Source of the DNA: Candidatus Latescibacterota bacterium
Lineage (GTDB): Bacteria; Latescibacterota; UBA2968; GCA-2709665
Assembly (NCBI GenBank): GCA_965237675.1
Contig: OZ250150.1
Coordinates: 3,616,001-3,680,000, forward strand
Length of the DNA stretch: 64,000 nucleotides
Direction of reading: 5' to 3'
The notes beneath the pieces were generated by a model. That model was not told the DNA's origin and searched no databases. It was given only the letters and a program-made list of their open reading frames with translations. This document shows positions 51,602 to 54,887 of this stretch, one piece after another (the first letter of the stretch is position 1; every line of letters starts with the position of its first letter). The translations under genes were made by a program, and so were the position numbers.

Positions 51602-53038
51602 TCAGGTCAGCCTGGGGAAGAGCGGTTGACTCTTCCGGATCACGGGTCTTGAGAAGCTGCTCTCGATTCTCCCGGCGGTTCGTGGAAGAAAGGGTTTCAG
51701 GCTCCATGCTATGGCGTGGACCGACCCGACCCACGCCGAGAGGTGTTGTCTTAACCTCTCGGCTTTTTGTTGTTTCAGAAGTTCCCATGGGCGGGCCGCG
51801 TCGATTTCCCGGTTCAGTTGAGCGATCTGCCGCCAGATGGACCGGAGGGCCGCGGCGAAGTCGAAGCTGTCCCGGACGTCCTTCAGGTCCGGTGAAATGC
51901 GGGTGCGAGGCGTTTCCGCACGACCGTAGCCGGCCTTTTCGCAAAGGGCTTCGAGCCGGCGAACGAGGTTGCCCAGGCCGTTCGCAAGGTCCGAGGTGTA
52001 GACTTCCCGGAGCCGGGCTTCGGAGACGTCTCCGTCCCCTCCGGAGCGGACGGCGCGGAGCAGGTAGTACCGGACGGCGTCAGCGCCGTACCGCTCGATC
52101 AGCGGGAATGGATCGACGGCGTTGTCCAGCGACTTGCCGATCTTGCGGCCCTCTACGGTCAGGTGGCCATGGACGAAGATGGCCCGGGGCAACGGCAGGC
52201 CGGCCGAAAGCAGCAGGGCTGGCCAGTATACCGCGTGGAATTTGAGGATATCCTTGCCGATTACGTGGATCCTGTTGGGGCAGTTGCGCCAGTACCGTTC
52301 GAAATCTTCGAACCTGGAGCCGTAGCCCAGGCCGGTGAGGTAGTTGGTCAGGGCGTCGAACCAGACGTACATGACTTGGGTGGGATCTCCCGGCACAGGC
52401 ACCCCCCAGCCTCCCGAACGTTCCCGATTGCGGGAAATACTGAAGTCGTGCAGGCCCTGCCGGATGAATCCCAGCGCCTCGTTTCGCCGTGTTTCCGGGA
52501 GAATGCGGAGCTTTCCAGACACGATCAGGGCCTCCAGCGGCTTCTGATAGTTGGAAAGACGGAAGAAATAGTTCGTTTCTTCGACGTTCTCGGGTTCGAC
52601 ACCATGTACAGGGCACCGTCCATCCGCCAGGTCCGGTTCCAGATAGAAGTCCTCGCAGCCCACGCAATACAGACCGCGGTACTGTTTGAGGACAATATCC
52701 TCTTGCCGGCAGGCCGTCCAGAATCTGGAAGCGCCGCGGAAGTGGGCGTCGGAGGAGGAGCGGATGAAGCGGTCGGAAGCGATGTCGAGGGCCTCGACAA
52801 GGTTCAGGAAGACAGCGGCGTTCCGATCGCAGAACTGGCGGGGGGCCAGGCCTTCCCTTGCAGCGGCCTGCACGTTCTTGAACGCGTTCTCGTCGGTTCC
52901 GGTCAGGAAAAAGGTGTCGTCGCCCAGGAGCCGGCGCCACCGGGCAATCGCGTCGGCCTGTACGAGTTCCAGAGCAAAGCCCACGTGGGGGCGGGCGTTG
53001 ACGTAGGGGATGGAGGTCGATACATAGAAGGTGTTCAT
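51602..53038 (-). CDS. metG: Methionyl-tRNA synthetase, short form without C-terminal tRNA-binding domain
   Basis: PYVNARPHVGF, GTDE, CVGC/CPVH knuckle, YVWFDAL, IGKDILKFH, KIGKS (KMSKS equivalent), LANGLGNL. Confidence 0.92.
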   Translation of the reverse strand: MNTFYVSTSIPYVNARPHVGFALELVQADAIARWRRLLGDDTFFLTGTDENAFKNVQAAAREGLAPRQFCDRNAAVFLNLVEALDIASDRFIRSSSDAHFRGASRFWTACRQEDIVLKQYRGLYCVGCEDFYLEPDLADGRCPVHGVEPENVEETNYFFRLSNYQKPLEALIVSGKLRILPETRRNEALGFIRQGLHDFSISRNRERSGGWGVPVPGDPTQVMYVWFDALTNYLTGLGYGSRFEDFERYWRNCPNRIHVIGKDILKFHAVYWPALLLSAGLPLPRAIFVHGHLTVEGRKIGKSLDNAVDPFPLIERYGADAVRYYLLRAVRSGGDGDVSEARLREVYTSDLANGLGNLVRRLEALCEKAGYGRAETPRTRISPDLKDVRDSFDFAAALRSIWRQIAQLNREIDAARPWELLKQQKAERLRQHLSAWVGSVHAIAWSLKPFLPRTAGRIESSFSRPVIRKSQPLFPRLT

Positions 53039-53112
53039 GGCAAGTCCTTTCCATTTGCGGACTGAATAAGGATAAAGCGACGCATTTCGGCTCGGAACAG
53101 GACATGCGCATG
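53036..53112 (-). promoter_or_regulatory. Predicted RBS-sequestering hairpin of metG
   Basis: mRNA CAUGCGCAUGUCCUGUUCC (53112-53094) can form 16 pairs with GGAAAGGACUUGCCAUG (53052-53036), which holds the SD and start codon. Confidence 0.6.
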
Positions 53113-53277
53113 TAAGAGATACCGCCGGTGCTGTGAGATAAACAGTTGAACATTCGGTTTTCCCCCATAAAATTGGAGCGGTTCAGGCCTTGGGACACCG
53201 TTTCGTCAATTTGCGATCCGGACCCGTGGCGTCAGGCGCGATACGTGGCCAGAAATGAATGAGGACTGTTTTTGCAC

Positions 53278-53314
53278 AAATTAAAACCCACCGCCGATCC
53301 GTCGGCGGTGGGTT
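53278..53314 (-). terminator. Intrinsic terminator / attenuator hairpin in the metG leader
   Basis: 13-bp perfect stem AACCCACCGCCGA-CGGA-TCGGCGGTGGGTT followed by TTAATTT on the minus strand. Confidence 0.8.
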
Positions 53315-53343
53315 GGTCGATTCAGGTACAGGTGTGATTCAGT

Positions 53344-53502
53344 TCAAGTCAGGGGATGGTCCGCCGCCGAAAACCCGGTAGAAAAGGAGGCCATCATGTA
53401 CATAGATATATCGTCGACACGTGTCGACGGCGTGCCGTTGAAGGCGGGAAAAGCAGACGTGTTCGAACTCGTTGCTTTATTTGGCTTCAGATCCGGCGTC
53501 AT
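53344..53502 (-). CDS. Putative Met-rich leader peptide (52 aa)
   Basis: AGGAG RBS; MTPDLKPNKATSSNTSAFPAFNGTPSTRVDDISMYMMASFSTGFSAADHPLT; lies between a consensus promoter and a terminator. Confidence 0.6.
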   Translation of the reverse strand: MTPDLKPNKATSSNTSAFPAFNGTPSTRVDDISMYMMASFSTGFSAADHPLT

Positions 53503-53530
53503 GGCAGGCTCCTGTCTTTGCGTTCGCGGA

Positions 53531-53559
53531 AATATAGAATGCTGGGTGGGAAATGTCAA
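53531..53559 (-). promoter_or_regulatory. Sigma70 promoter driving the metG leader
   Basis: TTGACA (53559-53554)-N17-TATATT (53536-53531). Confidence 0.75.
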
Positions 53560-53837
53560 GTCTGCCGATCGCATTTCGGTTTTTCGGCTGGCGCCGCGAT
53601 CGCACAGGTAACCGTTCAATGTCCGTGAATATCGTAGCTATTTGGCATGAGTGTGTTCCCGGCCCATCCGGGTTGCGCCCGTCGCGGGATTTTCATCTTC
53701 CCCTTGTCCTTTTGGCGGGATGGGCTTACATTGTCGCAGATAGGAGACCTGGTGGTCGGCTTGCCAGTTGTCTGGTTTTAAGCCTGTACCAGGTGTGCAT
53801 CGACTTTCGCGAACATTACAAGAATAGGGACTCGGTC

Positions 53838-54887
53838 GTGCTTTACTGGTTGGGGGAGCGTTTCGCGGATATTTACGGGCCTTTTCGGCTGTTAACGTCC
53901 TATCTGTTTCTGGCCGTTCTCGGCACGGCGCTGGCAGGACTGTTTACCTGGCTGCTACTTCCAAGATTGTGGATGCGGTTGCCCAAAGACCGGGGCCGCG
54001 CGTTTGCCGTCGAGAACGAGCAAAGCCACGGCAAGCCCGTTGGCGCGGGCGTTATTTTCATCCCTATCTATCTGGTCGTGTGTTTGCTGATTCTTCCGCC
54101 GGGATCCCAGTACTGGCAGATTCTCGGCTGTGTTTTCCTCGCGATGCTGGCCGGTTTTCTGGACGATCGAAGCCCGGGAGGGTGGGGCGAGTATCGCGTG
54201 GGGGCCATCGACCTGGGCATTTCGTTACTGGGCGCGATGGTCATTTGCCAGTTGGCGTCCGTCGACGTCTGGTTGCCGCTGATGAAGACGCCGGTATCGG
54301 TTCCGCCGTGGATTTTTGTGCCCGGAGCCGCATTGTTGATCTGGGTTTCAATTAATGCCACCAACTGTACCGACGGCGTGGACGGGCTGTCGGGCAGCCT
54401 GAGTGTCATGGCTTTTGTCTATCTGGGCACGATTCTATACGGGATTGTGGGGCACCGGGACATTGCCAGGTATCTACTCGTGCCGCATTATCCGGATGGT
54501 GCGGTCTGGGCGCTGTTTGCATTTACAATGGCCGGATGTCTGGCCGGTTATCTGTGGTACAACGCCTATCCGAGCGCCGTACTGATGGGAGACGCCGGTT
54601 CCCGGCCAATGGGCCTCTTGCTCGGGACGCTGGTTCTGGCCTGCGGCAATCCGTTTCTGATCGTCGTCGTTGCCGGGGTGGTTCTGGTGAATGGGGCTAC
54701 GGGGCTCCTGAAAGTGGCGTTGCTGCGGTTCTTGAAAATCGGGATCTTTAAGACGGTTCGTTATCCGCTGCACGATCATTTTCGGCACAAAAAAGGTTGG
54801 TCGAACACCCATGTGCTTGTGCGGTTTATTCTGCTTCAGGCGTTTGTGACGCCAATTCTGCTGGTTCTGCTGGTCAAGATCCGTTAA
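53838..54887 (+). CDS. mraY: Phospho-N-acetylmuramoyl-pentapeptide transferase-like protein, outside a dcw cluster
   Basis: GFLDD, NATNCTDGVDGL, LWYNAYPS.VLMGDAGS, PLHDHF..KGW; GTG start at 53838. Confidence 0.85.
   Translation: MLYWLGERFADIYGPFRLLTSYLFLAVLGTALAGLFTWLLLPRLWMRLPKDRGRAFAVENEQSHGKPVGAGVIFIPIYLVVCLLILPPGSQYWQILGCVFLAMLAGFLDDRSPGGWGEYRVGAIDLGISLLGAMVICQLASVDVWLPLMKTPVSVPPWIFVPGAALLIWVSINATNCTDGVDGLSGSLSVMAFVYLGTILYGIVGHRDIARYLLVPHYPDGAVWALFAFTMAGCLAGYLWYNAYPSAVLMGDAGSRPMGLLLGTLVLACGNPFLIVVVAGVVLVNGATGLLKVALLRFLKIGIFKTVRYPLHDHFRHKKGWSNTHVLVRFILLQAFVTPILLVLLVKIR

Follow-up and report, generated by a model that had tools for sequence, protein, structure and literature searches.

How is the second methionyl-tRNA synthetase (MetRS) gene of a Candidatus Latescibacterota bacterium controlled, and is its ribosome-binding site (RBS) itself governed by a translated leader? 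The question is raised by the DNA upstream of metG in a stretch of 64,000 nucleotides (nt) of assembly GCA_965237675.1 (contig OZ250150.1, positions 3,616,001 to 3,680,000), which is called the window and from whose first letter all positions are counted. An earlier note, made by a model from the letters of the window, had proposed that behind a Met-rich leader with a terminator (the first tier) there is a second upstream open reading frame (uORF; the second tier), whose Met codons pair with the Shine-Dalgarno (SD) sequence and the start codon of metG. Our reading of the second tier, to which we give a probability of roughly 0.55, is that of a leader-ORF translational attenuator of the second MetRS that would report the charging of Met-tRNA and that is placed behind a classical attenuator. 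Two serial ribosome-based checks appear to govern the second MetRS in this uncultured phylum.

A uORF and a predicted RBS-masking helix before metG

The regulated gene encodes the second of two MetRS paralogs. Its product scores 394.9 bits against TIGR00398 (cut-off 336.35), and the other copy is found on the same contig in a frame of 634 amino acids (39% identity); no Met-rich leader was seen upstream of that other copy. The leader and metG features are all on the minus strand, and those of the second tier are the following (negative positions count from the metG start).

51602..53038, minus strand: metG, methionine--tRNA ligase, 478 amino acids (TIGR00398)
53052-53045, minus strand: metG SD GGAAAGGA, with the ATG at 53038-53036
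52080..53153, minus strand: second-tier uORF, regulatory part 53153-53039, then out of frame past the metG start
53161..53165, minus strand: SD-like GGGGG of the uORF, seven bases 5' of its ATG
53100..53138, minus strand: uORF peptide core SHSTGGISYMRMS, family motif GG[IVL]xxM[RC]xS
53109..53111, minus strand: first Met codon, at -73, the proposed stall site, kept in 7/7 genomes
53103..53105, minus strand: second Met codon, Met in 3/7 genomes, otherwise Leu, Thr, Val and Thr
53089..53112, minus strand: 5' arm of the predicted helix, uORF Met-Arg-Met-Ser codons, mimic of the anti-SD
53036..53059, minus strand: 3' arm of the predicted helix, metG SD GGAAAGGA and AUG

The uORF begins where the earlier note had placed it, at the ATG 53153-53151 behind GGGGG, and its translation (MFNCLSHSTGGISYMRMSCS...) agrees with the table of open reading frames. 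The claim that it has no stop before metG was equally borne out: the uORF crosses the metG SD and ATG out of frame and stays open for a further 319 codons beyond that ATG, to 52080. In the window the uORF is SD-led and lies at least 130 nt inside the transcript, and it is therefore not a leaderless start. The 16S rRNA of the same genome ends in CACCTCCTTTCT; GGAAAGGA is accordingly a good SD and GGGGG a usable one, and the helix has a 5' arm that mimics the anti-SD. The SD of the uORF had been called weak, a judgement that does not stand since GGGGG pairs with the genome's own 16S end with one G-U. The segment CATGCGCATG equals its own reverse complement and is palindromic, as had been remarked.

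In the minimum-free-energy fold of 53030-53125 the nucleotides 53112-53094 pair with 53052-53036, giving 17 pairs that include one G-U, so the Met-codon segment does pair with the SD and the start of metG as proposed. Twelve core pairs have probabilities of 0.94-0.99 and two others of 0.68-0.69; at the start codon, the four CAUG/CAUG pairs have 0.30-0.38. The masking of the RBS was measured specifically as the cost of opening the positions -14..+3, with dinucleotide shuffles of the upstream 104 nt as the reference. In the window this cost is 13.4 kcal/mol, and the shuffles average 8.9 (standard deviation 2.0); 2/100 shuffles reach 13.4, and the cost is higher than that of 92/100 synonymous recodings of the uORF. 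The idea that the hairpin is favoured in folding held in part: the helix is in the minimum-free-energy structure and the opening cost is beyond the shuffles, but the energy of the region as a whole is ordinary (figures are given below). No terminator-like site was found between 53153 and 53036, that is from the second tier to metG, so the hallmark of a transcription attenuator is absent from this part. A scan of 52500-54200 against Rfam, at E up to 10, returned no T-box, no SAM riboswitch and no other family, apart from a 'hya' match inside metG that was discarded as being at chance level (E 9.4, 16.5 bits with a cut-off of 56.8).

Upstream of these elements lies the first tier, with the following features.

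53559-53531, minus strand: sigma-70-like promoter, TTGACA, 17 nt, TATATT (11/12 matches), which would drive leader and metG
53344..53502, minus strand: first-tier leader ORF, 52 codons and stop, with Met at 53403-01, 53397-95 and 53394-92 (...ISMYMMAS...)
53275..53314, minus strand: first-tier intrinsic terminator, 13-bp stem 53314-53285, then a T-rich tail

When the first tier (53502-53275) was examined as an attenuator, both a terminator and a competing antiterminator after the regulatory codons were found; the leader segment CGGCGG pairs with the 5' arm of the terminator once the 3' arm is omitted from the fold. No second promoter-like site was found on the same strand between the promoter at 53531 and metG, and the first-tier leader peptide, when searched against the whole of this genome (G000), matched only itself.

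Conservation and distribution of the two tiers

The comparison set consisted of 19 Latescibacterota genomes with an ortholog of the second MetRS paralog (17 initial genomes plus G079 and G077); the locus L018 (G037; 49% identity, in-frame TGA) was left out. The uORF is present in 7/19 (G000, G010, G012, G015, G017, G079 and G077), and these genomes span two families. Homologous Met-rich leaders with a terminator, each with three or four Met codons, are found at 17/19 loci. Both tiers occur together in five genomes (G000, G010, G012, G079 and G077), which upholds the stacking behind a transcriptional attenuator for 5/7 of the uORF genomes, and the second tier occurs without the first in G017 and G015. 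At the 12 loci with the first tier alone the terminator abuts the metG SD in eleven cases, while the twelfth (L017, from G016) has a spacer of ~110 nt.

Several searches contributed to this distribution. BLAST with the element in 168 genomes of the phylum recovered G000, G012, G017 and G015 and missed G010; a covariance model (R1) run on 132 genomes of the class added G010, G079 and, weakly, G077 (E 0.012). Thirteen other R1 loci (L230-L242) were rejected, as no MetRS gene lies alongside any of them. At the weak matches L230-L233, L235, L237, L238 and L240 the DNA encodes ...VVGGIGIMNIML..., and these are coding look-alikes with a GGIGxM core and not leaders; judged by eye only, the look-alikes (mostly with a GGIGIM-type peptide) were taken to be genes of ABC-type permeases. 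A scan of metagenomes with the MetRS protein gave one close relative (L190, 78% identity), with the other 79 loci at 41-58%; as the element of L190 is identical to that of G079, it adds no extra case.

In all seven genomes the uORF starts with ATG or GTG, 4-8 nt after a G-rich SD-like run, and the frame in which it passes the metG ATG is shared (...RTCHE), the differences in length between genomes (9 and 21 nt) being multiples of three alone. The uORF stop lies 23-319 codons into metG, at a position that is not conserved. A frameshift fusion of the uORF with metG and a trans-acting small protein were considered and dropped, given the unconserved distal uORF and an out-of-frame tail of such varying length. 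Conservation is concentrated in the peptide core, where the substitutions are mostly synonymous or conservative: the Ser, Gly and Ile codons vary synonymously, and the variation per site for codon positions 1, 2 and 3 is 0.29, 0.17 and 0.35, respectively. The distal 14 codons are unconstrained (0.44-0.54 differences per site), and the same figures apply to the poorly conserved loop region. The surroundings of the uORF Met are similar to those of the Met codons in the first-tier leaders, and the likeness that had been seen between ISYMRMS and the ISMYMMAS of the first leader is thereby supported. Met codons in the plural had also been put forward as the sensing positions; the codon at 53111 is conserved throughout, but the one at 53105 is not, and a third uORF Met codon, at -55, occurs in 2/7 genomes.

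In six of the seven genomes the helix is conserved along with the peptide. RNAalifold on six sequences returned the same helix, with 21 pairs, in which 90.5% of the 126 cells are paired, compared to 32-41% with slid partners; 5/21 pairs change on both sides, which 3/500 shuffles reach. The energetic comparison is stronger evidence for the helix than this covariation. At the six second-tier loci the opening cost is 11.2-19.7 kcal/mol, the shuffle means are 6.2-9.2 and the observed value is reached by 0-5/100 shuffles. Synonymous recodings that preserve the peptide reach the observed cost in 0-8/100 cases, which indicates that codon choice favours masking beyond what the peptide dictates. The 12 orthologs with the first tier alone have opening costs of 4.7-10.6 kcal/mol, and the separation between the two groups stands with 80 and with 160 nt of upstream context. 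The pairing of leader codons with the SD in homologues, a check that the earlier note had proposed, was thus recovered in 6/7 uORF genomes and is absent from G077.

Some loci depart from the general layout. In G079 (L190/L228) ~200 nt of apparently truncated coding sequence separate the first-tier terminator from the second-tier uORF, and the tiers are thus separable by inserted DNA. In G012 (L016/L225) the match to metG is broken into two parts that lie in different frames (residues 1-134 and 137-478), owing either to a frameshift in the gene or to a fault in the assembly; this genome still carries both leader tiers. At L017 a short ORF (MDALGGLGAHS...), with DNA resembling the second-tier core, was seen by eye ~60-100 nt upstream of metG and after the first-tier terminator. 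Its Met codon is lost and it is in another frame relative to metG, and to judge from the DNA it may be a decayed second tier; R1 gave no match at L017 at E up to 1.

Proposed mechanism and rival explanations

We propose that the second tier would work as follows. Messengers that extend past the first-tier terminator would carry the SD-led uORF. In the resting messenger the codons 53112-53089 (Met-Arg-x-Ser-x-x) would mimic the anti-SD and pair with 53059-53036, so that initiation by the 30S subunit on metG would be blocked. With ample Met-tRNA(Met) the ribosomes on the uORF would run on, the helix would re-form behind them and the metG start would be crossed out of frame. When charged tRNA(Met) is scarce, by shortage of Met or by insufficient MetRS activity, a ribosome would pause when the conserved Met codon (53111) lies in its A site or close to it, and would cover the 5' arm; the SD and AUG would open and metG would be translated. 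The two tiers would then be serial checks that respond to the same signal, and conditional expression of the second MetRS gene forms part of the proposal.

The geometry of the locus was evaluated with a model ribosome, for which a footprint of 28 nt was forced to be unpaired. With the modelled A site at -79 to -49 the computed opening cost falls to about 4-12 kcal/mol at the six loci; in the window the same footprints bring it from 13.4 to 8.2-11.2, and to 10.4 at Met 53111. This geometry fits a single-hairpin translational attenuator of the cat type. The supply of Met-tRNA(Met) would be the simplest stall signal, because the gene encodes a MetRS and the motif resembles that of the first-tier leaders. 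The conserved residues before Met and the conserved overlap with metG call for more than a hungry codon, for which reason two of the explanations below, ribosome traffic and an arrest peptide, were retained.

The following points weigh against the proposed attenuator. The energy of the whole region is unexceptional, with z = -0.68 for 96 nt (46/200 shuffles equal or better) and z = +0.76 for 261 nt. In G077, the most distant case, the uORF and its peptide are retained and the loop is 21 nt shorter, but the RBS is not sequestered: opening costs 5.3 kcal/mol, with a shuffle mean of 6.5 and 66/100 shuffles as high. With 220 nt of context L016 (10.4) comes just under L011 (10.6), which has the first tier alone, and L190 goes down to 6.5. 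In the consensus helix 9/21 pairs are invariant and both arms are also under coding and SD constraint; as the structure itself comes from these six sequences, which are related to one another, the covariation is suggestive only. The genomes are all metagenome-assembled. The second tier is missing from 12/19 orthologous loci and is thus dispensable. A single conserved Met codon makes a weak sensor, and the conserved GG[IVL]xx before it is unnecessary in a plain hungry-codon model. Finally, the leader ORF of cat and ermC is over by the time the hairpin is reached or stops inside it, and encodes a peptide of ~9-19 residues; the second-tier leader ORF, in contrast, has no stop and continues for 23-319 out-of-frame codons into metG. 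The ermC/cat-type attenuation that had been suggested therefore stands as regards the uORF with its own SD, its conservation and the masking helix, and does not stand as regards a leader that stops before the gene.

In a rival account the uORF works mainly through the traffic of its ribosomes, which would occlude the metG SD and AUG until a pause or weak initiation clears them, or through coupling, with the helix being secondary. We consider this unlikely. In its favour, all seven uORFs use one frame to cross the metG start, the 17-24 codons from Met to AUG contain no stop and the indels are multiples of three, and G077 keeps the uORF and the overlap without predicted sequestration; in Sinorhizobium, overlapping uORFs are reported to act by coupling or by occluding the RBS (PMC13285730). 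Traffic alone does not need the sequestration beyond shuffles and recodings that is seen in 6/7 genomes, however; in addition, the place of the stop within metG is unconserved (23-319 codons), and orthologs that have no uORF show the same frame just as open (48-377 codons). A different role for the peptide would be that of a nascent chain that arrests the ribosome upon sensing free methionine, a Met analogue or an inhibitor, with the helix still as the output. The motif GG[IVL]xxM[RC]xS is kept at the level of the peptide, over about nine residues that would lie in the tunnel and with synonymous codon changes, only one Met codon is conserved, and a related motif is common to the first-tier leaders, all of which agree with such arrest. 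We nevertheless regard it as distinctly unlikely: the tools used gave no match to a ligand or to an arrest motif already known, the MetRS gene and the Met clusters of the first tier point to Met-tRNA, and RNA pairing can account for some of the conservation of the peptide, as the Ser codon is TCC in 5/7 genomes.

That the second tier is a decaying, functionless duplicate of the first-tier leader, with incidental pairing to the RBS, is very improbable in our view. The absence of the element from most loci, the seemingly degraded copy at L017 and the ordinary z-scores of the whole region would be expected under decay, but the element is 73% identical over 112 nt, without indels, between genera whose MetRS proteins are only ~75% identical, the start, frame and peptide core are retained in seven genomes of two families, and six of these have an RBS that is more sequestered than in the shuffles and recodings. 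Just as improbable is a helix that serves as the operator for a factor acting in trans (MetRS itself, uncharged tRNA in the manner of a T-box, or a metabolite in that of a riboswitch) and to which the uORF is irrelevant. Some synthetase genes are indeed controlled in that way, as in the autoregulation of thrS. Translational T-boxes have likewise been described at actinobacterial ileS (PMC1262725). Against an operator at this locus stand the outcome of the Rfam scan, the poorly conserved loop, and the coding-like variation of the conserved stretch together with its conserved start.

Comparison with known leaders and the wider Met leaders

Control by leader peptides is textbook knowledge for Trp, His, Phe, Leu, Thr and Ile/Val. 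Translational attenuation is known from cat-86/cmlA and from ermC, where a ribosome-targeting drug is the signal and the controlled gene gives resistance to that drug. The second tier shares with these systems an SD-led leader ORF with its own start, a helix with its 5' arm in the leader codons (in the six genomes mentioned above, not in G077) and its 3' arm formed by SD and start, and a stall that would free the RBS; cat/cmlA is the closest single-hairpin layout. It differs in that the signal is presumably the supply of Met-tRNA and not a drug, in that the gene encodes a tRNA synthetase, and in its placement after a transcriptional attenuator. A leader ORF that has no stop of its own before the regulated gene and extends into it out of frame is a design unseen in cat or erm. 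Attenuation at a synthetase gene has its model in E. coli pheST, with a leader-peptide transcription attenuator. The first tier is well described as such an attenuator, in which the leader of a synthetase gene has many codons for the amino acid that the enzyme handles; the second tier, unlike the pheST type, has no terminator before metG and would act on the RBS.

Further parallels come from the literature. Attenuators have been predicted at trpS and leuS of Streptomyces (PMC1262725), and His leaders at hisS paralogs in bacilli (PMC2965389, which also mentions ermC); as with hisS, it is a paralog and not the housekeeping copy that would be controlled here. In the mycobacterial polycysteine short ORFs (sORFs), stalled ribosomes block structures that sequester the downstream RBS (10.1101/834739). 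The principle, a stall at cognate codons that prevents an RBS-sequestering structure, is the same, here in silico only; the sORFs are leaderless and contain runs of Cys codons, whereas the second tier is SD-led with one conserved Met in a conserved peptide context, and phylum, amino acid and gene class are different. The second tier would thus work like an attenuator of the cat or polycysteine type, yet it lacks one defining feature of cat and erm, a leader that stops before the gene. In the actinobacterial LEU element upstream of leuA, Leu codons of the leader peptide pair with the leuA SD (PMC1262725), which is similar in that regulatory codons of a candidate leader peptide pair directly with a downstream SD. 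The LEU element also contains a pseudoknot, and those who described it considered attenuation by a leader peptide unlikely and preferred a protein factor; in the second tier no pseudoknot was seen, although no search for one was made. Leaders in tandem or with multiple layers are found at vmlR of B. subtilis (PMC9226507) and mgtCBR of Salmonella (PMC3641672), which reportedly combine transcriptional and translational attenuation, or two short ORFs, in one leader. Their signals and genes are different, and in the case of metG the peptides of the two tiers appear to be related and probably respond to one signal. A search of the full-text literature outside subscription journals yielded nothing relevant on a Met-codon leader at a MetRS gene or on MetRS in Latescibacteria.

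Met-rich short ORFs are also seen ~130-290 nt upstream of distant homologues of the short MetRS type (L057, L073, L087, L088, L186-L188, L191, L197, L207, L209, L213 and L215). They contain three Met within at most 7 residues (e.g. SMSMVMRM, MAMGMS and MSMPMRG), and their hosts include Anaerolineae, Ktedonobacterales, Chloroflexota and Pelagibius sp., the rest being metagenome contigs. Eleven of these loci were inspected by eye and have a hairpin and a T-run downstream. Among 141 loci with at least 300 nt of upstream sequence, Met clusters were found in 17 cases on the sense strand and in 3 on the antisense strand, which served as the control; 4/17 of the sense clusters belong to Latescibacterota genomes that were already counted. 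Taken at the level of sequence, this suggests that Met leaders form a widespread class without an Rfam family.

A broader interpretation, doubtful but worth stating, is that the motif shared by the tiers (small-small-[IVL]-x-x-Met-Arg/Cys-x-Ser in the second, I/F-S-Met-x-Met-Met-Ser in the first) is a nascent-peptide module that sensitizes the ribosome to Met-tRNA(Met), to an inhibitor of MetRS or to methionine, so that one sensor would be placed on two outputs, sometimes in series, within a widespread and undescribed class of Met leaders. If so, the outputs, either a terminator/antiterminator or an RBS helix with an occluding out-of-frame ORF, would be swapped like the aptamers of riboswitches, and tiers in series would make a sharp switch for a back-up MetRS. 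Related sensor peptides on a terminator or on an RBS helix would offer a route to study the exchange of platforms in leader-peptide systems. Leaders of this kind could also flag conditionally expressed back-up synthetases, which would be candidates for tolerance to synthetase inhibitors or for starvation responses.

Sequencing data were examined as four runs in contig form: three RNA-library runs (two studies) and one of unstated kind. Contigs assembled from RNA libraries (runs X21 and X22, one study), from a relative similar to G012, cover metG, the 3' arm and the loop, and also span the first-tier leader through its terminator, with loose ends matched to L016 by eye; in these runs 53070-53258 had no coverage at 85% likeness. 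As transcription, ends and strand cannot be read from such contigs, they were weighed neither way.

Two minor observations concern the surroundings. A terminator-like hairpin with a T-rich tail lies within the first 20 codons of metG (52979-52996, minus strand) and is probably a chance occurrence in coding sequence. The divergent neighbour (53553-54887, plus strand) encodes an MraY-like transferase of 444 amino acids that scores 116.3 bits against mraY, below the cut-off of 192.05; the match begins at residue 158, leaving a long N-terminal part unmatched, and the listed start of this gene at 53553 overlaps the metG leader promoter at 53559-53531.

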